Source of the DNA: Escherichia phage K1E
DNA length: 45,251 bases
Reading direction: 5' to 3' (one strand)
Sequence record: NC_007637.1
Below the pieces are notes generated by a model. The model made no database searches. It saw nothing but the letters and a program-made list of their open reading frames with translations, and was not told the origin of the DNA. Of this stretch, positions 289 through 45,251 are shown in pieces; position 1 is the stretch's first letter, and every line of letters starts with the position of its first letter. The position numbers were made by a program, and so were the translations under genes.

Positions 289-359
289 TCTGTTCGTTTC
301 GCTACGCTTCACTCACTGCTCCTCACTTCGCTGTCGCTCGCTACACTGCCTGTCGTGTA

Positions 360-490
360 CCTTAGGTTATTCCTTGAGGGATGGCTTAGGTTAGCCTTAG
401 TGGGCTACCTTAGTTAAAGCCTTAGTGCTTAGCTTAGTATCAACTTAGTAGTGTACCTTAGTTAGTCTTAGTGCCAGACCTTAGTGATTG
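360..490. repeat. Array of about 10 short CTTAG(T/G) repeats just inside the left terminal repeat
   Basis: CCTTAGT/CTTAGG units at roughly 361, 385, 395, 408, 420, 433, 444, 457, 467 and 478, spaced 10-13 bp. Two more copies lie inside the repeat (183, 206) and three near the right repeat (about 44797-44838). Confidence 0.6.
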
Positions 491-714
491 CATAGCTAAA
501 GCTATAAGATGCAATTAGGTCGCGGTCGGTAGACCGCTGAGAGTAGGTAATAGTGATAAGATGCAGTAGGAGGAACACCAGAAACCTAGCCATCCTAGCC
601 TATCCTAGCTCTGTATCTATTGCTTTCCTTAGTCTCACATGTTAGACAACCTAGGTTTATCTTAGTAGTTGTGACATGTATCACATAAATAATCTATCTT
701 AGTTAAATTTAGTG

Positions 715-743
715 TTGACACAGGCAATCAACAGATATACATT
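715..743 (+). promoter_or_regulatory. Candidate host sigma-70 early promoter
   Basis: Perfect -35 TTGACA at 715..720, then a 16-17 nt spacer and ATACAT/TACATT as -10; followed by an inverted repeat ctgagacgg...ctgtctcag (about 752..780). Upstream of the first early ORFs. Confidence 0.3.
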
Positions 744-884
744 AGCAATCACTGAGACGGACCTAGCAAGCTGTCTCAGGTTATAAGTAGGAGAATTGAT
801 GCGTAGGCCGTAGCTAGCGGATGTAGTCGCATGAAGGCTTGAGCAAGGGGCCGTTTAATACCTTCTTCCTCTGGAGACAAAGCT

Positions 885-915
885 TATAACATTGCTCTTT
901 AACAATTTGCTTAGT
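885..915 (+). promoter_or_regulatory. Early-region repeated element, copy 1 (core GCTCTTTAACAAT, 894..906)
   Basis: One of four copies of a conserved 13-14 nt core lying between early genes; candidate RNA processing or regulatory site. Confidence 0.35.
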
Positions 916-964
916 GTAACCTATGTATGCCGTGGTTAATTACTTATTGAATGAGGAATTAACT

Positions 965-1060
965 ATGAATTATGAAGAAATGTATGAAGTCTATTTCGAC
1001 TCATTAGATGAAGGCGAAGAAGCATTATCCTACGCTGAGTTTGTGGAGGCTTTATCATGA
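965..1060 (+). CDS. Hypothetical small acidic early protein (31 aa)
   Basis: ATG 965 with GAGGA 6 nt upstream; stop TGA 1058..1060 overlaps the next ATG (ATGA). Not in the track because it is under 60 aa. Confidence 0.3.
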   Translation: MNYEEMYEVYFDSLDEGEEALSYAEFVEALS

Positions 1061-1242
1061 TTCTGAATAACCGTGAACTGTCCGTTCTCTTCACTCTGTT
1101 ATGCTACATGATTCGTAATAACGAATTACTTACAGATGACGAGATGGCACTATATCACCGCTTTCTTAACGAAGGTTGGACAGATACAGTTAACCAGAAA
1201 CGTGACTTGATGAAGGAGTTAAGTAATGATTCAGTTGACTGA
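1057..1242 (+). CDS. Hypothetical early protein (61 aa)
   Basis: Track ORF starting at an ATG; coupled to the upstream ORF by an ATGA overlap. Confidence 0.4.
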   Translation: MILNNRELSVLFTLLCYMIRNNELLTDDEMALYHRFLNEGWTDTVNQKRDLMKELSNDSVD

Positions 1243-1381
1243 AGACCAACTAAAGCAACTCTTAGTCGACGCGTGGTTTGCTGGTCATGAAACCTCGCAA
1301 TACACGCCTAACTCTTACGGTGATGCTAACAGATATGCACGCTCTACATTAAAGGAGGTTAAAGAGGATGTATCAGCATGA
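1226..1381 (+). CDS. Hypothetical early protein (51 aa)
   Basis: ATG 1226 (aggagttaagtaATG), stop TGA 1379..1381; overlaps both neighbours; found by manual translation. Confidence 0.3.
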   Translation: MIQLTEDQLKQLLVDAWFAGHETSQYTPNSYGDANRYARSTLKEVKEDVSA

Positions 1382-1592
1382 GGTTTTCTTCGAATCAGCT
1401 AGTGAAGCTATCCGCTTCCATGATGATATGATGCAAGCTGGCGTAGGTGTTGATGTGTATCACTATTTGATAGATTACGACACTGAATATCACCGAGTTA
1501 CCTTAGTATCTGAGTATGACAACCAAGTCATTACTGAGTATCTAGGTAGTGAAGATTATGATTACGATGAAGTAATCACAACAAATCTCTAA
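1368..1592 (+). CDS. Hypothetical acidic early protein (74 aa)
   Basis: Track ORF with ATG start and AAGGAGG upstream (1352..1358). Confidence 0.45.
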   Translation: MYQHEVFFESASEAIRFHDDMMQAGVGVDVYHYLIDYDTEYHRVTLVSEYDNQVITEYLGSEDYDYDEVITTNL

Positions 1593-1654
1593 ATTAACTA
1601 TTGACAGCCACGGCATACAAGGCTACATTAAGCATCAAGACGGCGACGTCTTTA

Positions 1655-1698
1655 AACATCCCGCTCTTTAACAATCTGGCTAGTGCCTTGGTAGGCTA
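1655..1698 (+). promoter_or_regulatory. Early-region repeated element, copy 2 (core GCTCTTTAACAAT, 1663..1675)
   Basis: Core followed by ctggctagtgccttggtaggc, which resembles the dyad arm of copies 3 and 4. Confidence 0.35.
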
Positions 1699-1718
1699 AC
1701 TACTTACTAAGGTGAACT

Positions 1719-1931
1719 ATGAACTACTGCGACATCGCTCACGAATTACGCATGGAACGTGAGAAACAAGAGAAGCGGATTATCAAGAAGATGGCTGTAC
1801 TGCTTGCACACTATAAGGCAGACAAACAGCCAACACATGATGAGTTCGTGGACTTCTGTAACATGTATCTTAATGTGAGTAAGGCCACTGGTTACAGATG
1901 GCTTAAAGCACTGAATGATGGAGAATTGTAG
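1719..1931 (+). CDS. Hypothetical early protein (70 aa)
   Basis: ATG 1719 preceded by AAGGTGAACT; this same ribosome-binding context recurs at 2031 and 7406. Confidence 0.5.
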   Translation: MNYCDIAHELRMEREKQEKRIIKKMAVLLAHYKADKQPTHDEFVDFCNMYLNVSKATGYRWLKALNDGEL

Positions 1932-1936
1932 CAATA

Positions 1937-2007
1937 AGCCAGCTTAATAGCTGGCCTATCAAGGCACTAACCTAGCTCTTTAACAATCCGGTTTGTGTCT
2001 TGATAGG
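1937..2007 (+). promoter_or_regulatory. Early-region repeated element, copy 3: hairpin plus 13-bp dyad around core GCTCTTTAACAAT (1975..1987)
   Basis: Hairpin gccagc-ttaata-gctggc (1938..1955), then arms cctatcaaggcac (1955..1967) and gtgtcttgatagg (1995..2007) enclosing the core. Confidence 0.4.
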
Positions 2008-2030
2008 CTTACTAACAAAGGTGAACTATC

Positions 2031-2195
2031 ATGACTAACGCACAACGTAAACGCTATGATGCATTGCAAGAGAAACTTGCTGTTGCTTATGCCGCTTGGC
2101 AAGCTAACACAGACAAGAGCAAACACGATAAACTTTATAGTAAAGTGGTTGCAATTAATGCTAAAATAGATAAACTTGTGAATAGTATCTTATAA
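2031..2195 (+). CDS. Hypothetical early protein (54 aa)
   Basis: ATG 2031 with AAAGGTGAACT upstream; stop TAA 2193..2195; found by manual translation. Confidence 0.45.
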   Translation: MTNAQRKRYDALQEKLAVAYAAWQANTDKSKHDKLYSKVVAINAKIDKLVNSIL

Positions 2196-2206
2196 GATAG
2201 TTGCTG

Positions 2207-2272
2207 GCACTAGCCAGCCTATCAAGGCACAAGCCACGCTCTTTTAACAATATGGGTAGTCGCTTCTTAGTC
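2207..2272 (+). promoter_or_regulatory. Early-region repeated element, copy 4 (core GCTCTTTTAACAAT, 2237..2250)
   Basis: Hairpin gctggc-acta-gccagc, arm cctatcaaggcac, the core, then an imperfect partner arm gtctggatagg. Confidence 0.35.
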
Positions 2273-2345
2273 TGGATAGGTTAAACCTAGGGTATTCTTT
2301 TGAGTGCCCTATAATGTAACCTAACTAACTAATGAGGATTAAATC

Positions 2346-2672
2346 ATGGAACGCAATGCTAACGCTTACTACAATCTTCTGGCTGCAACTGTTGAAGCAT
2401 TCAACGAGCGCATTCAGTACGATGAGATCCGCGAAGGTGATGATTACTCTGATGCACTACATGAGGTTGTAGACAGCAATGTTCCAGTTTATTACAGCGA
2501 AATCTTTACTGTGATGGCTGCTGATGGCATTGATATTGAATTTGAGGATGCAGGTTTGATTCCTGATACGAAGGATGTAACCAAGATTCTACAAGCTCGC
2601 ATCTATGAGTCTCTTTATAATGATGTACCAAATGATAGTGATGTAGTTTGGTATGAAGACGAGGAAGAATAA
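2346..2672 (+). CDS. Ocr-like acidic protein (candidate DNA-mimic anti-restriction protein, 108 aa)
   Basis: Very acidic protein. The stretch IQYDEIREGDDYSDALHEVVDSNVPVYYSEIFTVMAADGIDIEFEDAGLIPDTKDVTKILQARIYESL closely parallels T7 gp0.3 (Ocr) as I remember it; needs alignment to confirm. Confidence 0.6.
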   Translation: MERNANAYYNLLAATVEAFNERIQYDEIREGDDYSDALHEVVDSNVPVYYSEIFTVMAADGIDIEFEDAGLIPDTKDVTKILQARIYESLYNDVPNDSDVVWYEDEEE

Positions 2673-2674
2673 AG

Positions 2675-2788
2675 ATGGAAAGGCAATATAACTTCATCTT
2701 CTCAGACGGTGTAACCCTGAAATGTTCCTTACGATTTGCGCAGATTCGTGAGGAAGTGCTAGGTACTACATACAAACTATTTAGCTGA
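2675..2788 (+). CDS. Hypothetical small protein (37 aa)
   Basis: ATG 2675 just after the upstream stop; weak evidence; its 3' end overlaps a promoter-like sequence. Confidence 0.2.
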   Translation: MERQYNFIFSDGVTLKCSLRFAQIREEVLGTTYKLFS

Positions 2789-2801
2789 CACTATAAGAGA
2801 A
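2779..2801 (+). promoter_or_regulatory. Weak SP6-type phage promoter-like sequence
   Basis: ATTTAGCTGACACTATAAGAG: two mismatches to the consensus, including A instead of G at +1. Confidence 0.35.
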
Positions 2802-2864
2802 GGCTTAACAAGGCGTTGCTACGGTAGCGCCTGATTAAACTTTCACTTACTAGGAGTTAAGACT

Positions 2865-3092
2865 ATGGATTTAGATAGCATCATTATGGCATTTGCTCTT
2901 ATTGGCTTAAGCTGGTGCTCCTATCACCTTTACCGTGAGTTCTTATTTGATAAAGCTAAACGCAAACTAAGAAAGGAAGGCGGTAACTACCTCTGTGTAA
3001 GAGGCGGTTTAGTCGAATATATTGCACCTAACGGCACGGAATGCGCCATTAACAAAGATGCATTTATAGAAACGTGGCATTACATCAAGTAA
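2865..3092 (+). CDS. Hypothetical small membrane protein (75 aa)
   Basis: ATG 2865 with TAGGAG upstream; hydrophobic N-terminal segment IIMAFALIGLSWCSY. Confidence 0.45.
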   Translation: MDLDSIIMAFALIGLSWCSYHLYREFLFDKAKRKLRKEGGNYLCVRGGLVEYIAPNGTECAINKDAFIETWHYIK

Positions 3093-3155
3093 CTAGCCTA
3101 TAGCCTGCCTGTGTGGGCTATGTGATATTTACTTACACTATATAAGGTGACTATT

Positions 3156-4040
3156 ATGACTACTGAAAACACCCTTCTGTCTGTTCGTGAAGCTGCAACC
3201 GCTGAAATCAAGCAGCACTTAGACAATATCGGCACTTCTTACATCAAAGTTGGCGCTTGTCTGAATGAATTACGCGGTGATTTCGAAGGTCAAAAAGACT
3301 TTTTAGCTTATGTAGAATCAGAGTTCGGCATCAAGAAGGCACAATGCTACAAGCTGATGAGTGTAGCCCGTGTCTTTGAAGGAGACGAACGCTTTAAAGG
3401 TGTGGCTATGCGTGTAATGCTGGCGCTTGTTCCTTTCGCTGATGAAAATATAATCATGGAGAAGGCCGCAGAACTCGCCGCAGATGGCAAGCTGGACACT
3501 AACGCCGTAAACGCCCTGATTGAGACTAAGAAAGAGATAAAGGCCGAAACGGTACAATCTAAGGCTGAGGCAGTAAAACCGCAGGAGAACGCGACTGAGG
3601 CCGCAGAATCACAGGAAATGCAAGCGCCGCAGGTAGTGCCACCCGCGAGCGAGCAGGAGGCCGACGAATCAGCACCATGGGAAGAGGAAAGCAAGCCGGA
3701 AGCGCCAAAGGCAGCGCCGCTGGATAACACGGCTAATACCGAAAACGCCGCTATGGCTAGCCTCTTAGCACAAATTAAGGCACTGACTGAGCAATTACAG
3801 GCAGCTAATGACCGCATCGCCTCCTTAAGTAGCGCACGCGAAAGCAAGAAGGCAGCCGCACCTATGCTGCCGCAATTCAAATCTTCCTGCTTCTATGCTC
3901 GCTTAGGGTTAAGCGCTGAGGAGGCAACGAAGAAAACAGCAGTTAACAAGGCGCGCCGCGAACTGGTTAAGCTAGGCTACGGTGAAGGACATGAAGCATG
4001 GCCCTTAATCTCTGAGGCAGTAGAAGAGTTGACTAAGTAA
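3156..4040 (+). CDS. Hypothetical early protein (294 aa) with acidic Pro/Glu/Ala-rich linker
   Basis: Track ORF starts at GTG 3147; first ATG is 3156 with AAGGTGA upstream. GC-rich low-complexity middle (about 3540..3720); sits immediately upstream of the RNA polymerase gene. Confidence 0.55.
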   Translation: MTTENTLLSVREAATAEIKQHLDNIGTSYIKVGACLNELRGDFEGQKDFLAYVESEFGIKKAQCYKLMSVARVFEGDERFKGVAMRVMLALVPFADENIIMEKAAELAADGKLDTNAVNALIETKKEIKAETVQSKAEAVKPQENATEAAESQEMQAPQVVPPASEQEADESAPWEEESKPEAPKAAPLDNTANTENAAMASLLAQIKALTEQLQAANDRIASLSSARESKKAAAPMLPQFKSSCFYARLGLSAEEATKKTAVNKARRELVKLGYGEGHEAWPLISEAVEELTK

Positions 4041-15931: not shown

Positions 15932-15954
15932 ATTTACTGGACACTATAGAAGAG
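15932..15954 (+). promoter_or_regulatory. SP6-type phage promoter (+1 G at 15949)
   Basis: ATTTACTGGACACTATAGAAGAG; perfect core. Confidence 0.8.
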
Positions 15955-35600: not shown

Positions 35601-35941
35601 TATCGCCTAAAGGGTTGGCCTTTGGTGCAATGGGTATGATGAGTACAACTGCTGTATTTAGTCTAGGTGGAGATTTCTTAGGTGGCCTAGGTGTTCTACC
35701 TTCTGAGTTAGTACAATCCCGTTATGAGGCTGGCTTTCAGACTAAAGGTTTGATAGACCAAATACCACTAGTAGGTGTTGGTCAAGATGCATATCGTTTA
35801 GCAGATTCTATAACTAAATATGCAGAGGGTGATACAGAAGGTGTAGATGTGGCACGTAGGGCTTTACGCTTAGTGCCTCTAACTAATGTAATAGGAATCC
35901 AGAACGCATTGCGTTATGGCTTAGATGAACTGGAGGATTGA
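32633..35941 (+). CDS. Large internal virion protein (T7 gp16-like ejection protein, 1102 aa)
   Basis: GGAGG RBS; size and position between the lysozyme-domain protein and the tail-fiber adaptor. Confidence 0.6.
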   Translation: MEQDIKTNWAGYVQSTPEPFSIEAAPVSAPTIRQRNELQEQVLEAKADADILGAVGAAFQNEWLAFGGKRWYDRATADFTPQPDFEIQPEQREALRFKYGTDMMQTITEGVRSEDELNFRIQNADEDLERNKRIAQAGWAGSVATIGAAVLDPVGWVASIPTGGAAKVGLVGRAVRGAIAAGVSNAAIESVLVQGDMTRDLDDIMVALGSGMAMGGVIGAVARGRATKLSEQGDDRAASIVRSADAGDRYVRAVADDSIGAMRVKGEEVLTEGAFDISSKGEDLLKTLQREGNAIDMTPRRWAGTMSALGTVVHSSQDASVRGLGARLFESPQGLGMQKASASLMQNTNLNRLKSADMNRFNDGFDLWLKENNINPVAGHTNSHYVQQYNEKVWEAVRIGMDEATPKSIRMAAEGQQAMYREALALRQRSGEAGFEKVKADDKYMPDIFDSMKARRQFGMHDKEDIIELFSRAYQNGARKIPKEVADEIARAQVNRVVDATLTGRMSFEKAMSGQTKAEYEAIMRKAGFSDEEIEKMVEALDNKETKDNISNRAKMSLGLDVTQEYNGIRMRDFMNTNVEELTDNYMKEAAGGAALARQGFSTYQAALNAIDLVERNARNAAKDTKAHAQFEAESAKIRQSEPDYKKAQEKIEELKKRLKLKEKDEAAGLAIDEEIRQMREGLRLIMGKSIDADPQALSTKMLRRGRDITGVLRLGQMGFAQLGELANFMGEFGIAATTIALGKQFRFTSKALRSGDGFFRDKNLAEVERMVGYIGEDNWLTTKGARPDEFGDVTTVKGMMAHFDQSMNSIRRAQTNLSLFRMAQGSLERMTNRQIALSFIDHLEGKKIIPQKKLEELGLTQEFMTNLQKHYDANSKGSGLLGFDTMPYAMGETLANAIRRKSGLIIQRNFIGDEGIWMNKALGKTFAQLKSFSLVSGEKQFGRGIRHDKIGLAKKTAYGFALGSIVYAAKAYVNSIGREDQDEYLEEKLSPKGLAFGAMGMMSTTAVFSLGGDFLGGLGVLPSELVQSRYEAGFQTKGLIDQIPLVGVGQDAYRLADSITKYAEGDTEGVDVARRALRLVPLTNVIGIQNALRYGLDELED

Positions 35942-36903
35942 TGAGTTATACTTTCACAGAACATATAGCCAACGGTACGCAAGTAACCTATCCCTTTAGC
36001 TTTGCTGGCAGGGATAAAGGCTATCTTCGTGCCTCAGATGTGATAGTGGAATCTCTTCAAGGTAACACTTGGATTGAGATTACATCTGGCTGGCAATTAA
36101 CTGGTACGCATCAAATCACTTTTGATGTAGCACCCGTTGCAGGTTTGAAGTTCCGTATTCGAAGGGAAGTACAAAAGGAATATCCATACGCTGAGTTTGA
36201 CCGTGGTGTTACCTTGGATATGAAGTCTTTAAATGGTTCTTTCATTCATATACTGGAGATTACACAGGAGTTACTTGATGGGTTTTATCCAGAAGGATAC
36301 TTCATTAAGCAGAATGTAAGCTGGGGCGGCAATAAGATTACTGACCTAGCTGATGGTGAGAATCCAAAAGATGCAGTAAATAAATCACAGCTAGATGCTA
36401 TCGACAAGAAGCATACTGATTGGAACTCTGCACAAGATATAGAGATTGCTGGTATTAAGAGAGGGATGGTGTCTGGTGTGTCGCATCGAACTATTCCTTG
36501 GTATATGGTTGCCTCCGGTGGAGAGCAAATCATTCGACCACCTTACTCATTTGATGATGCTATGGTGTTTATAAACGGTGTATTCCAGCATGAACTAGCA
36601 GGTGCAGTATCCGTGGGGTATGATGTTATAACCCTGTCCAAGCCATTACAGGCTGGGGATGAAGTTTATGTGCTTATCGGTAGTCGCTTAACCCCACCTA
36701 CAAGTGCGGATACTATCCTCTTTACACAAGCAGTGAGTGAAGGCACACAATCTATCGACATTGTAACGGCTTTCCAACGTCTTGATGTATACTTGGATGG
36801 CCTGTATCAACCTAATAATGCTTATGAAATCGTAGGGTCTACTATCACTTTCAGTGAGCCATTACCTGAGTGTGTCGTAAGTATGAAGCTACAACTAGTG
36901 TAA
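35941..36903 (+). CDS. Tail fiber N-terminal-like adaptor protein (320 aa)
   Basis: Track ORF starts at TTG 35938; ATG 35941 with GGAGG upstream; TYPFSFAGRDKGYL and LADGENPKDAVNKSQL parallel the tail-binding N-terminal domain of T7 gp17. Confidence 0.7.
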   Translation: MSYTFTEHIANGTQVTYPFSFAGRDKGYLRASDVIVESLQGNTWIEITSGWQLTGTHQITFDVAPVAGLKFRIRREVQKEYPYAEFDRGVTLDMKSLNGSFIHILEITQELLDGFYPEGYFIKQNVSWGGNKITDLADGENPKDAVNKSQLDAIDKKHTDWNSAQDIEIAGIKRGMVSGVSHRTIPWYMVASGGEQIIRPPYSFDDAMVFINGVFQHELAGAVSVGYDVITLSKPLQAGDEVYVLIGSRLTPPTSADTILFTQAVSEGTQSIDIVTAFQRLDVYLDGLYQPNNAYEIVGSTITFSEPLPECVVSMKLQLV

Positions 36904-40489: not shown

Positions 40490-40777
40490 ATGTCTAAATA
40501 TGGAACCGCAGGTACTGTTACTGGTCAGGCTTTTCGAGTAAAAACTGTACAAACCACTGCAACGGCAATCCCTTTGCCTATTGTTGCTGAAGCAGACCTT
40601 AAGAAGAAAGATCATCCTATCAACATTAAACACCTCTCTGGTAAACAGAAAGGTGCCATGGTTGCTGTAGAGAAAACAGACCAATCCTTGTACATCGCTA
40701 TTGCACGTGGGAGTGAACCCACCGACAAGTGGGATGCAACTACTATGGAGTTGGACCCTGTAACACCTGCGGCTTAA
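40490..40777 (+). CDS. Hypothetical protein (95 aa), paralog of the previous gene
   Basis: AGGAGAG RBS; shared motifs LSGKQKGAMVAV and IAIA. Confidence 0.55.
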   Translation: MSKYGTAGTVTGQAFRVKTVQTTATAIPLPIVAEADLKKKDHPINIKHLSGKQKGAMVAVEKTDQSLYIAIARGSEPTDKWDATTMELDPVTPAA

Positions 40778-40797
40778 TTGTAAAGACGAGGTCAATA

Positions 40798-41142
40798 GTG
40801 CTTAACAAACACTTCAAGCGCCGTGAGTTCGCTTGCCGTTGTGGGTGCGGTACATCCACAGTAGATGCTGAGTTACTACAGGTAGTCACAGATGTACGTG
40901 AGCACTTTGGTGCTCCTGTAGTTATTACTTCTGGACACCGCTGTGCTAAGCACAATGCTAATGTGGGAGGTGCTAAGAACTCCATGCATCTTACTGGTAA
41001 GGCTGCTGACATTAAGGTACAAGGTATTACACCTTACCGTGTATGGTCCTATCTAACAGCACGCTACCCCAATAAATATGGCATTGGGTCTTATCCTAAT
41101 TTCACCCACATTGATGTAAGAGAGGGATGTGCACGATGGTAA
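40798..41142 (+). CDS. Endolysin, zinc peptidase M15-like (114 aa from GTG start)
   Basis: VVITSGHRCAKHNANVGGAKNSMHLTGKAADI...FTHIDV fits the M15 zinc-binding pattern. Track ORF starts at GTG 40729 inside the upstream gene; proposed start is GTG 40798 with GAGG upstream. Confidence 0.6.
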   Translation: MLNKHFKRREFACRCGCGTSTVDAELLQVVTDVREHFGAPVVITSGHRCAKHNANVGGAKNSMHLTGKAADIKVQGITPYRVWSYLTARYPNKYGIGSYPNFTHIDVREGCARW

Positions 41143-41250
41143 GATGTATTGAATGGTGCGAGCGCATGGTTGCTCAAGCTGCCGAGGATGGCAACTATGA
41201 TGACTGGAAGAACTACTCTGACTTGTTAGCTCAATGGAAAGGGAGATGCA

Positions 41251-41400
41251 ATGAAAAAGCTGTTTAAGTCTAAGAAAGTGGTAGGTGCACTGGTTGCACT
41301 AGTGATTGCTCTTGTTTCTGTAGGTCTTGGCGTAGACCTAGGTGAAGGTGCGGAAGGTTCCGTCACTGACGTGGTATGCCAAGTAATCACCTGTGAATAA
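41251..41400 (+). CDS. Hypothetical small membrane protein (49 aa); lysis-cassette component
   Basis: ATG 41251 with GGGAG upstream; basic N-terminus followed by a hydrophobic segment; found by manual translation. Confidence 0.35.
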   Translation: MKKLFKSKKVVGALVALVIALVSVGLGVDLGEGAEGSVTDVVCQVITCE

Positions 41401-41614
41401 GGTGCTAGAGGTGGTAGCAGGTCTTATTGGCCTGCTGCTTGCCGCTAAGAAGAAGAAGGAAGAGAAGGAGGCACAAAGTGAGGCGAATCATGCTAGCGAC
41501 AATCCTGCTGATTGGTTCACTGATCACTTCAGGGTGTCAGACGGCGTTACCAGAGAATCCAAAGGTGAAGCCTCTGAAGCCGACGCTTACGGCAGTCTAC
41601 GAGGTGGACGATAA
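41393..41614 (+). CDS. Putative i-spanin (Rz-like, 73 aa); start uncertain
   Basis: GTG start; N-terminal transmembrane segment VLEVVAGLIGLLLAA followed by a charged region; overlaps the o-spanin candidate in another frame. Confidence 0.35.
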   Translation: MNKVLEVVAGLIGLLLAAKKKKEEKEAQSEANHASDNPADWFTDHFRVSDGVTRESKGEASEADAYGSLRGGR

Positions 41615-41687
41615 AGTCTGCTTCAGTAAGCCTGACGCTACAAAATTAGGTCTGTACATTCTCTCGCTAGAACGCGGGTATAATTAA
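41490..41687 (+). CDS. Putative o-spanin (Rz1-like lipoprotein, 65 aa)
   Basis: Track ORF trimmed to ATG 41490; signal peptide ending ...LITSGC (lipobox-like) followed by Pro-rich PENPKVKPLKP; overlaps the i-spanin candidate. Confidence 0.5.
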   Translation: MLATILLIGSLITSGCQTALPENPKVKPLKPTLTAVYEVDDKVCFSKPDATKLGLYILSLERGYN

Positions 41688-41716
41688 TACATAGTTTTAT
41701 GTATCAGTGTCTTACG

Positions 41717-41739
41717 ATTTACTGGACACTATAGAAGAG
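41717..41739 (+). promoter_or_regulatory. SP6-type phage promoter upstream of the tailspike region (+1 G at 41734)
   Basis: ATTTACTGGACACTATAGAAGAG; perfect core. Confidence 0.8.
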
Positions 41740-41818
41740 ATAAGATAGTGCCGTTCTTTTGAGCGGCCTATTACTAGCCAATCTTCATAGGGAGGGTTGG
41801 GAAGTAATAGGAGAGTAT

Positions 41819-42154
41819 ATGGCTAAGTTAACTAAACCCAAGACAACGGGCTTACTACATAGAGATACTGTACTAGCTACCTTATTAGATAATTTACTAT
41901 CTAAAAGGCGTGTTACATTTGAAGGTGTAGTTCCAAGTGAAGATACTAAAATTGAGATAGAAGTACCTACAGCATGGGATTTAGATTCTTCGTGGGCATC
42001 ACTTGTATCATTAAGTACACCTACACTTTGTACAGCTTGGATTACTAAAGTGTCAGATACTAGATTAGAAGTACATGTGTTCCATACAGCACAAGTTGAA
42101 ATAGACATAGATGTAGATGTTTACATTCTAGGTAAACACATTGTCAGTGCGTAA
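41819..42154 (+). CDS. Hypothetical protein (111 aa) upstream of the tailspike gene
   Basis: Track ORF starts at an upstream ATG (41759); ATG 41819 has AGGAGA upstream; AT-rich composition. Confidence 0.45.
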   Translation: MAKLTKPKTTGLLHRDTVLATLLDNLLSKRRVTFEGVVPSEDTKIEIEVPTAWDLDSSWASLVSLSTPTLCTAWITKVSDTRLEVHVFHTAQVEIDIDVDVYILGKHIVSA

Positions 42155-42221
42155 GCACTGCTTTTCGCGCAACTTTTCTTAAAGGTTATCATGATGGTAG
42201 CCTTTCAGAAAAGGAGGTTAC

Positions 42222-44657
42222 ATGATTCAAAGACTAGGTTCTTCATTAGTTAAATTCAAGAGTAAAATAGCAGGTGCAATCTGGCGTAACTTGGATGACA
42301 AGCTCACCGAGGTTGTATCGCTTAAAGATTTTGGAGCCAAAGGTGATGGTAAGACAAACGACCAAGATGCAGTAAATGCAGCGATGGCTTCAGGTAAGAG
42401 AATTGACGGTGCTGGTGCTACTTACAAAGTATCATCTTTACCTGATATGGAGCGATTCTATAACACCCGCTTCGTATGGGAACGTTTAGCAGGTCAACCT
42501 CTTTACTATGTGAGTAAAGGTTTTATCAATGGTGAACTCTATAAAATCACGGATAACCCTTATTACAATGCTTGGCCTCAAGACAAAGCGTTTGTATATG
42601 AGAACGTGATATATGCACCTTACATGGGTAGCGACCGTCATGGTGTTAGTCGTCTGCATGTATCATGGGTTAAGTCTGGTGACGATGGTCAAACATGGTC
42701 TACTCCAGAGTGGTTAACTGATATGCATCCAGATTACCCTACAGTGAACTATCATTGTATGAGTATGGGTGTATGTCGCAACCGTCTGTTTGCCATGATT
42801 GAAACACGTACTTTAGCCAAGAACGAACTAACCAATTGTGCATTGTGGGATCGCCCTATGTCTCGTAGTCTGCATCTTACTGGTGGTATCACTAAGGCTG
42901 CAAATCAGAGATATGCAACAATCCATGTACCTGATCACGGACTCTTCGTTGGTGATTTTGTTAACTTCTCTAACTCTGCGGTAACAGGTGTATCTGGTGA
43001 TATGAAGGTTGCAACAGTAATAGATAAGGACAACTTCACGGTTCTTACACCTAACCAGCAGACTTCAGATTTGAATAACGCTGGAAAGAATTGGCACATG
43101 GGTACTTCTTTCCATAAGTCTCCGTGGCGTAAGACAGATCTTGGTCTAATCCCTCGTGTCACAGAGGTGCATAGCTTTGCTACTATTGATAACAATGGCT
43201 TTGTTATGGGCTATCATCAAGGTGATGTAGCTCCACGAGAAGTTGGGCTTTTCTACTTCCCTGATGCTTTCAATAGCCCATCTAATTATGTTCGTCGTCA
43301 GATACCATCTGAGTATGAACCAGATGCGGCAGAGCCATGCATCAAGTACTATGACGGTGTATTATACCTTATCACTCGTGGTACTCGTGGCGACCGACTA
43401 GGAAGCTCTCTGCATCGTAGTAGAGATATAGGTCAGACTTGGGAGTCACTAAGATTTCCACATAATGTGCATCATACTACTTTACCGTTTGCTAAGGTAG
43501 GAGATGACCTTATTATGTTTGGTTCAGAACGTGCAGAAAATGAATGGGAAGCAGGTGCACCAGATGATCGTTACAAGGCATCTTATCCTCGTACCTTCTA
43601 TGCACGATTGAATGTAAACAATTGGAATGCAGATGATATTGAATGGGTTAACATCACAGACCAAATCTATCAGGGTGACATTGTGAACTCTAGTGTAGGT
43701 GTAGGTTCTGTTGTAGTTAAAGACAGCTTCATTTACTATATCTTTGGTGGTGAAAACCATTTCAACCCAATGACTTATGGTGACAACAAAGACAAAGACC
43801 CATTTAAAGGTCATGGACACCCTACTGATATATACTGCTATAAGATGCAGATTGCAAATGACAATCGTGTATCTCGTAAGTTTACATATGGTGCAACTCC
43901 AGGTCAAGCTATACCTACTTTCATGGGTACTGATGGAATACGAAATATCCCTGCACCTTTGTATTTCTCAGATAACATTGTTACAGAGGATACTAAAGTT
44001 GGACACTTAACACTTAAAGCAAGCACAAGTGCCAATATACGATCTGAAATGCAGATGGAAGGTGAGTATGGCTTTATTGGCAAGTCTGTTCCAAAGGACA
44101 AACCAACAGGTCAACGTTTGATTATTTGTGGTGGAGAAAGGACTTCATCATCTTCAGGTGCACAGATAACTTTGCACGGTTCTAATTCAAGTAAGGCTAA
44201 GCGTATCACTTATAACGGAAACGAGCACCTATTCCAAGGTGCACCAATCATGCCTGCTGTAGATAACCAGTTTGCTGCTGGTGGACCTAGTAACCGATTC
44301 ACTACCATCTACCTAGGCAGTGACCCTGTTACAACTTCAGATGCTGACCACAAGTACGGTATCTCTAGTATTAATACCAAGGTGTTAAAGGCTTGGAGCA
44401 GGGTTGGTTTTAAACAGTATGGTTTGAATAGTGAAGCAGAGAGGAACCTTGATAGCATACACTTCGGTGTCTTGGCTCAGGATATTGTAGCTGCTTTTGA
44501 AGCTGAAGGGTTGGATGCCATTAAGTATGGAATTGTGTCCTTCGAAGAAGGTAGGTATGGTGTGAGATATAGTGAAGTTCTAATCCTAGAGGCTGCCTAT
44601 ACTCGCCATCGTCTTGATAAATTAGAGGAGATGTATGCCACTAATAAAATCAGTTAA
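42222..44657 (+). CDS. Tailspike endosialidase (endo-N-acetylneuraminidase) with C-terminal intramolecular chaperone domain (811 aa)
   Basis: AAGGAGG RBS; sialidase Asp-boxes SGDDGQTW and SRDIGQTW; C-terminal region (about 44300..44657) resembles tailspike chaperone (S74-type) domains; overall sequence recognised from memory as K1-phage endosialidase. Confidence 0.8.
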   Translation: MIQRLGSSLVKFKSKIAGAIWRNLDDKLTEVVSLKDFGAKGDGKTNDQDAVNAAMASGKRIDGAGATYKVSSLPDMERFYNTRFVWERLAGQPLYYVSKGFINGELYKITDNPYYNAWPQDKAFVYENVIYAPYMGSDRHGVSRLHVSWVKSGDDGQTWSTPEWLTDMHPDYPTVNYHCMSMGVCRNRLFAMIETRTLAKNELTNCALWDRPMSRSLHLTGGITKAANQRYATIHVPDHGLFVGDFVNFSNSAVTGVSGDMKVATVIDKDNFTVLTPNQQTSDLNNAGKNWHMGTSFHKSPWRKTDLGLIPRVTEVHSFATIDNNGFVMGYHQGDVAPREVGLFYFPDAFNSPSNYVRRQIPSEYEPDAAEPCIKYYDGVLYLITRGTRGDRLGSSLHRSRDIGQTWESLRFPHNVHHTTLPFAKVGDDLIMFGSERAENEWEAGAPDDRYKASYPRTFYARLNVNNWNADDIEWVNITDQIYQGDIVNSSVGVGSVVVKDSFIYYIFGGENHFNPMTYGDNKDKDPFKGHGHPTDIYCYKMQIANDNRVSRKFTYGATPGQAIPTFMGTDGIRNIPAPLYFSDNIVTEDTKVGHLTLKASTSANIRSEMQMEGEYGFIGKSVPKDKPTGQRLIICGGERTSSSSGAQITLHGSNSSKAKRITYNGNEHLFQGAPIMPAVDNQFAAGGPSNRFTTIYLGSDPVTTSDADHKYGISSINTKVLKAWSRVGFKQYGLNSEAERNLDSIHFGVLAQDIVAAFEAEGLDAIKYGIVSFEEGRYGVRYSEVLILEAAYTRHRLDKLEEMYATNKIS

Positions 44658-44963
44658 GCAATCTGCTGCACGCCAGAACACATAAGAACTTATACAATCA
44701 GGACGTGACCCTAAGCAGGCATACGCCATTGCCAAGGATGTACAACGTCGTGCCATGAAGAAACCTTCTGCATCTTCTGCGTAAGCAGGTTAATATCTTA
44801 GTGTACACAAGGGCAGACTTAGGTTTGCTCTTAGTGTAATCCAAGGAGGTAACATGCAAGAGGAGAATTGGGATGTGTAATGTTGGATATGGAGAAGGTT
44901 GAACCTCAGTGTTGTACAAGGATTAACCAAAGTAAAAATTTTGATATAGGCGTGTGTCAGCTC

Positions 44964-45251
44964 TCTCGCCCTCGCCCTCGCCGGATTTTCCCCATATGGG
45001 GCCGCGCTGCGGTTGGCTTGGGGATTGGGCTAGGCTGGGCCGTCTTCAACCTGCTGCCGCAGGAAGCTCGATGGGTTGGCTGAGGGTTGCCGAGGGCTGC
45101 GCTTAGTGGTACACAAGTAGAACGCCTAGGAAGCGCTAGGGCACGCCTTAGTGTTGGACAAGGTGATTGCCTTAGTGCAACCGTTTAGGGCTTACACAGG
45201 CCGTTTTAGGGCAATTCCTGAGTGTTTGACAGGGTGTGAGGGTGTGGGCTA
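44964..45251. repeat. Right direct terminal repeat (288 bp)
   Basis: Copy of 1..288 running to the last base of the window; matched by eye over the visible stretches. Confidence 0.85.

Follow-up and report, generated by a model that had tools for sequence, protein, structure and literature searches.

Capsule-specific podophages gain host range by means of enzymatic tailspike cassettes that are swapped between homologous arms and docked on a two-site adaptor, and the tailspike module of the coliphages K1-5 and K1E is a classic example of this. In the dual module of K1-5, the K5 lyase gp46 and the endosialidase gp47 are both carried by the adaptor gp37. Phage K1E infects K1 strains only, and its cleavage of alpha-2,8-polysialic acid and its dependence on the K1 capsule have been reported (PMC6966330); capsule-independent infection or a lack of polysialic acid cleavage is contradicted by this existing literature. 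In the same review, with reference to Leiman 2007, gp37 is said to link gp46 and gp47 to the K1E virion, and gp46 of K1E is described as very small, truncated, and apparently non-enzymatic. Latka et al. (PMC6872550), likewise referring to Leiman 2007, give MAKLTKP as the peptide by which the K5 lyase docks onto the middle site of gp37, and the undecapeptide MIQRLGSSLVK as the corresponding peptide of the endosialidase. Virion location, adaptor docking, and K1 host range are taken here from these sources. The locus compared with them comprises positions 41717-44657 of the record NC_007637.1 from Escherichia phage K1E (the window, that is, the whole stretch of 45,251 nucleotides that was analysed), which encode the endosialidase tailspike endoNE in the gp47 position (slot 47) and, upstream in the gp46 position (slot 46), a 111-amino acid open reading frame (ORF) referred to as ORF46.

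The region 41717-44657 is the published right-end tailspike module of coliphage K1E, a feature that was already known. The window is a complete linear genome of a K1E-type phage, as indicated by exact direct terminal repeats of 288 bp (bases 1-288 are the same as 44964-45251). GenBank entry X78310 ('Bacteriophage K1E gp90 gene') shows 99.9% nucleotide identity to bases 41600-44800, and its annotated promoter, '12kDa ORF', and endosialidase fall at the matching places. Both sequences hold the same promoter, ribosome-binding sites (RBSs), and two ORFs, with 4 mismatches and 1 gap over 3956 bp and one amino-acid difference in the 111-residue protein. The same module is present in about 30 other Vectrevirus phages, with identities of 87-98%. 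It is highly probable that this module combines the endosialidase with a stub tailspike filling the second site of the adaptor. The features of the locus are as follows:

41717..41739, + strand, SP6/K1E-type phage RNA polymerase promoter ATTTACTGGACACTATAGAAGAG, an exact 23-mer repeat of 15932-15954; X78310 annotates a promoter here.
41734..41818, + strand, conserved 5' untranslated region (5' UTR; left cassette arm), with the RBS AGGAG at 41809-41813.
41819..42154, + strand, ORF46 ('12 kDa ORF', gp46 of K1E), 111 amino acids, with an ATG start and AGGAG 6 nt upstream.
41845..42144, + strand, K1E-type cassette-specific DNA, 300 bp, 35% GC, delimited by the blastn junctions with K1-5.
42145..42221, + strand, intergenic linker (right cassette arm), 77 nt, conserved and with two hairpins.
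42222..44657, + strand, endosialidase tailspike endoNE (gp47/gp90), 811 amino acids, identified by Pfam, PDB, and residue alignment.

A preliminary description of this DNA, based on the letters alone, had proposed an 811-residue tailspike with two Asp-boxes and a C-terminal chaperone-like domain, acting as an endosialidase with K1 specificity. The structural features are confirmed, and the assignment as a K1-specific endosialidase is supported. The Asp-boxes are SGDDGQTW at residue 152 and SRDIGQTW at residue 400. The database search of the tailspike revealed endosialidase homology in both Pfam (PF12217, E=2e-222; PF12219, E=1e-84; PF12195, E=9e-47; PF12218, E=2e-35) and the PDB, while the chaperone-like domain corresponds to Pfam Peptidase_S74 (PF13884; E=9e-10; 39 bits, cut-off 22). 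The domains of endoNE are:

Residues 1-37, docking undecapeptide MIQRLGSSLVK and N-terminal module.
Residues 39-102, End_N_terminal.
Residues 103-545, End_beta_propel, with the inserted End_beta_barrel at 214-296.
Residues 546-705, stalk, End_tail_spike.
Residues 706-811, self-cleaving chaperone domain (Pfam Peptidase_S74 at 706-763).

As judged from these matches, endoNE has the fold of the GH58 phage endosialidases, composed of a six-bladed beta-propeller, an inserted beta-barrel, and a tail-spike stalk. The crystal structures of endoNF 1V0E and 3GVL align to residues 38-705 with E=0, and 3GW6, an endoNF fragment with the chaperone, also aligns. Individual residues were mapped by aligning endoNE to the full-length K1F-type enzyme of the Kayfunavirus vB_EcoP_F. 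In this alignment, E371, R386, and R437 of endoNE correspond to the active-site residues E581, R596, and R647 of endoNF, and S706 and K711 correspond to its autocleavage dyad, S911 and K916. Placed at the start of the domain, this Ser/Lys pair is what is expected of a Peptidase S74 intramolecular chaperone (CIMCD), and cleavage of endoNE is predicted. The K1 specificity is supported by the near-identity to the endoNF structures, by the identity to the K1E gene, and by the literature (PMC6966330). Residues 1-11 are exactly MIQRLGSSLVK and the adaptor gp37 is encoded in the genome, as found in the adaptor-docked slot-47 tailspikes of SP6-like phages (Vectrevirus/Zindervirus). In addition, the PHROGs profile phrog_14895, whose length of 632 equals that of the K5 lyase, matches residues 644-806 (44150-44640), that is, stalk and chaperone, and a related C-terminal chaperone module therefore seems to be common to the two alternative tailspikes of K1-5.

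The small ORF had been noted to sit where related phages carry a second tailspike gene, and this is indeed the position of the K5 lyase gp46 in K1-5 and of a 479-residue tailspike in Mt1B1_P10. ORF46 starts with MAKLTKP (residues 1-7), an exact match to the published docking heptapeptide, which opens a conserved N-terminal region of about 24 residues, followed by an orphan beta-rich domain of about 85 residues. When compared by hhalign with the slot-46 tailspikes, only residues 1-24 and 1-44 match: ORF46 aligns to the K5 lyase over residues 1-44 and to the Mt1B1_P10 tailspike over residues 1-24, and the N-terminus of the K5 lyase (2X3H) is also its only PDB match. A word-indexed search of 5.8e9 proteins with ORF46 returned only 3 near-identical clusters, an exhaustive phmmer search of 1.84e9 cluster representatives returned only its own cluster, Pfam gave no match, and PHROGs matched only its own family, phrog_15083, of unknown function. 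The docking heptapeptide, and the position of the gene immediately behind the conserved promoter and 5' UTR, are those of a slot-46 tailspike, to which class ORF46 would belong on sequence grounds. An enzymatic or receptor-binding body (beta-helix or propeller) was not found in its remaining ~85 residues, which have no Pfam match and no homologue, and ORF46 is therefore better described as a stub than as a full tailspike.

Two other proposals about this ORF were discarded. The mechanical ORF listing gives a 131-residue version from a TTG at 41759, which was rejected because the ATG has the RBS and is the annotated start in the relatives and in X78310. An origin of ORF46 by deletion of the K5 lyase or of the 479-residue tailspike of Mt1B1_P10 was rejected for both donors, since blastn (word size 7), blastp, and hhalign detect similarity only over the first 24-44 residues and 26 nt. 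As a separate observation, residues 51-53 of ORF46 read TAW through a cluster of K1E-specific substitutions (41969-41977), at a place where the compared relatives have ATG or VTG.

The preliminary description had also offered that the small ORF might be a separate adaptor. This proposal, which would call for a T7 gp17-like N-terminal tail-binding domain and T4 gp10-like docking domains, fails, because the small protein has no Pfam match and carries instead the peptide that docks onto the adaptor, and the Phage_T7_tail domain sits in another ORF:

35938..36903, + strand, adaptor protein gp37, 321 amino acids, with an N-terminal Pfam Phage_T7_tail domain; outside 41717-44657.

This protein matches the 'tail adaptor protein' of PDB 7Y22 with E=1.3e-83.

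The other option raised at first, that of a remnant, was partly upheld. The promoter, the 5' UTR, the first 9 codons at the DNA level, and some 24-44 N-terminal residues are homologous to those of slot-46 tailspikes, while the other ~85 residues derive from no known tailspike; likewise, aligning the region with K1-5 and Mt1B1_P10 recovers the homologous arms and the N-terminus, but no match for the body. In its strict form, this explanation holds that ORF46 is a functionless, decaying remnant, an accidental frame left after the loss of the second tailspike that runs into the stop codon of the linker. The position of that stop codon in the loop of a conserved linker hairpin, the 35% GC and orphan character of the cassette, and the absence of DNA or protein similarity to the K5 lyase beyond the N-terminus would all fit. 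However, 23 of the 25 full-length phage records (81-99% identity) have an ORF46 of exactly 111 codons, and both its frame and its length are retained at synonymous divergences (dS) of up to 0.37. Across six divergent alleles, the ratio of non-synonymous to synonymous divergence (dN/dS) is 0.23-0.44, significantly below 1; the two most distant alleles differ by 23 synonymous changes in 79 sites and 23 non-synonymous changes in 254 sites (binomial p = 1e-4 against neutrality). ORF46 is under purifying selection. These data, together with a good RBS and promoter and with the attachment to gp37 reported in the review (PMC6966330), argue against a functionless remnant, which we regard as quite unlikely.

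Two records of the PK1A lineage (PK1A, EF507428, and mutPK1A2) bear different single-A indels in A-runs that shift the frame of ORF46, another point in favour of decay. The affected loci, 301-441 of the compared mutPK1A2 sequence and 297-630 of that of PK1A, are equivalent to 41819-42154 of the window, and one of the frameshifts is annotated as a premature termination in the viable phage mutPK1A2. These alleles suggest that ORF46 is dispensable in the laboratory, or that one of the records contains a sequencing error.

Several points weigh against the reading of ORF46 as a stub tailspike seated on the second adaptor site. Purifying selection on ORF46 is weaker than that on the endosialidase (dN/dS 0.05-0.20), and the frameshifted alleles imply that any role of ORF46 is dispensable, at least in the laboratory. 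The AF2 model, with a predicted helix at residues 15-24 and a predicted six-stranded beta domain, is of low confidence (pLDDT 56), which leaves fold and trimeric state unproven. Finally, the presence of ORF46 in the virion is taken at second hand, from a review that cites the primary work.

The same selection signal is compatible with a different function. ORF46 could be a minimal, lectin-like receptor-binding protein, a trimeric beta-sandwich on the adaptor that binds a lipopolysaccharide or capsule sugar and aids adsorption with no depolymerase activity, a proposal also compatible with weak fold matches. Although we consider it unlikely, if true it would make ORF46 the smallest known adaptor-docked receptor-binding protein, selected in all K1-only Vectreviruses. 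A role as a non-virion helper, for instance in the assembly of the endosialidase or of the adaptor, would be consistent with its co-transcription with the endosialidase gene, immediately upstream of it. Nevertheless, K1-5 and Mt1B1_P10 assemble endosialidases that are 96-97% identical without the body of ORF46, the endosialidase has an intramolecular chaperone of its own, and the docking heptapeptide points to a location in the virion, all of which renders such a helper very improbable.

According to the preferred explanation, that of an endosialidase accompanied by a stub tailspike, a late phage RNA polymerase promoter at 41717 would transcribe ORF46 and then the endosialidase gene. The endosialidase would trimerise with the aid of its C-terminal chaperone domain, which would then cleave itself off at Ser706, and the mature trimer would dock via MIQRLGSSLVK onto the C-terminal site of gp37 on the tail, binding and depolymerising the alpha-2,8-polysialic acid of the K1 capsule for the phage to reach the outer membrane. 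ORF46 keeps the MAKLTKP module by which slot-46 tailspikes such as the K5 lyase attach to the middle site of gp37, and has the beta-rich domain of ~85 residues in place of the enzymatic beta-helix. Most likely, it fills and caps an adaptor site that would otherwise be vacant, without enzymatic activity.

The promoter had been assigned to the small ORF as its own. The 111-residue ORF from the ATG at 41819 does have the promoter at 41717-41739 ahead of it, but shares it with the endosialidase: no promoter was found between the two ORFs, so that the one at 41717 serves the whole module. With up to 3 mismatches allowed, the 23-mer occurs 7 times in the genome, where chance would give 0, and its core GGACACTATAG occurs 12 times in the genome, always on the + strand, the copy at 41717 being the last, with none downstream. 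Transcription presumably starts at the G in position 41734, as predicted from the SP6 consensus. A scan of the region for sigma-70 promoters and terminators revealed no enrichment over shuffled sequences.

The borders of the slot-46 cassette are sharp when K1E is compared with K1-5. By blastn, the left homology arm extends over 41405-41844 (89%) and ends nine codons into ORF46, and homology resumes at 42145 (97%); between these junctions, the 300 bp of K1E stand in place of the 1881-bp body of the K5 lyase (gp46) of K1-5. A third cassette type is found in Mt1B1_P10 (720-2159 of its sequence), which encodes the 479-residue tailspike, starting with MAKITKP, and the same span is present in the T145P2 records. 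In Mt1B1_P10, this tailspike lies upstream of an endosialidase region that is 96.6% identical, and the Mt1B1_P10 and T145P2 phages may be bispecific like K1-5. K1E, K1-5, Mt1B1_P10, ACG-C91, and KAW1A4500 have almost the same promoter and 5' UTR, whatever gene follows them (three cassette types). The linker shows 95% column identity in 8 phages with three different upstream cassettes, whereas dS in the coding DNA on either side reaches 0.9. Its predicted folding is more stable than that of any of 200 shuffled sequences (z = -3.8; 0/200). Hairpin 1 (42145-42160) consists of CAGUGC-GUAA-GCACUG followed by CUUUUC, and its loop contains the stop codon of ORF46; hairpin 2 (42173-42213) abuts the RBS of the endosialidase gene, AAGGAGG. 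In one relative, hairpin 1 is annotated as a putative terminator; possible roles of the linker are those of a partial terminator, a site for RNase III, or a recombination linker. Plausibly, the promoter/5' UTR and the hairpin-rich linker, as conserved non-coding arms flanking slot 46, provide the homology for cassette exchange.

Horizontal exchange had been deduced at first from the AT-richness of the module. The base composition is as claimed, since in GC-content windows the module has 41.1% GC against 45.1% in the genome (lowest 1.2% of windows of equal size), and the 300 cassette-specific bp of ORF46, with 35%, rank in the lowest 0.3% of 300-bp windows. However, the early region near 300-3500 is as AT-rich as the tailspike module, so low GC by itself is weak evidence for transfer. 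The exchange itself is better attested by the cassette borders and by the mosaic structure of the endosialidase. In comparison with the K1F-type enzyme of the T7-like Kayfunavirus, the beta-propeller is 95% identical, the N-terminal extension and the stalk reach about 60%, and the chaperone 32%; nothing in the 245-residue T7 gp17-like domain of that enzyme corresponds to the 37-residue N-terminal module. At the DNA level, K1F-like phages match the propeller segment only (~90%). This pattern is direct evidence for domain-level horizontal exchange, stronger than the GC argument.

Outside these main elements, a lysis cluster (40729-41687) lies directly upstream of the module, with a Peptidase_M15_3 endolysin (listed at 40729..41142) and, after it, small overlapping ORFs that relatives annotate as Rz-like spanin. 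At the other end, the endosialidase gene shares its 3' end with a small overlapping gene '48' (44635-44784; 49 amino acids). K1-5, ACG-C91, KAW1A4500, ULINTec4, and vB_EcoP_C have this gene intact, but in the window and in X78310 a GAA-to-TAA change at codon 17 interrupts it (stop at 44683-44685). The terminal repeats are G+C-rich and contain short CCCTCG and GGGNTGGG-type motifs.

The textbook picture of this module is unchanged by these results, which make modest additions to it: the exact cassette borders, a body of ORF46 that comes neither from the K5 lyase nor from the 479-residue tailspike, purifying selection alongside dispensable alleles, and a near-invariant hairpin linker. Endosialidases serve as polysialic acid reagents and are candidate therapeutics, and the role of ORF46 bears on whether an empty adaptor site needs capping, which matters for the engineering of phages with swapped or removed tailspikes.

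Three described systems frame the module of K1E. The endosialidase endoNF of phage K1F (GH58; 1V0E, 3GVL, 3GW6), compared via the endoNF-type enzyme of vB_EcoP_F, has the same catalytic architecture, E/R/R residues, stalk, and S74 Ser/Lys dyad as endoNE. In contrast, endoNE lacks the T7 gp17-like N-terminal capsid-binding domain of ~245 residues, holding the 37-residue docking module instead, and its chaperone is shorter than the K1F-type one as well as divergent from it. Klebsiella phage Kp7 (7Y22, 7Y5S) has an adaptor homologous to gp37 of K1E, and the N-terminus of its tail fibre (7Y5S) matches residues 2-46 of endoNE, although the two phages differ in their hosts and in their enzymatic bodies. 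The third system is that of K1-5, which shares with K1E the promoter, the 5' UTR, the linker, the endosialidase (97% at the nucleotide level), MAKLTKP, and the ~44 N-terminal residues of the slot-46 protein, but has a 632-residue K5 lyase where K1E has the 111-residue stub.

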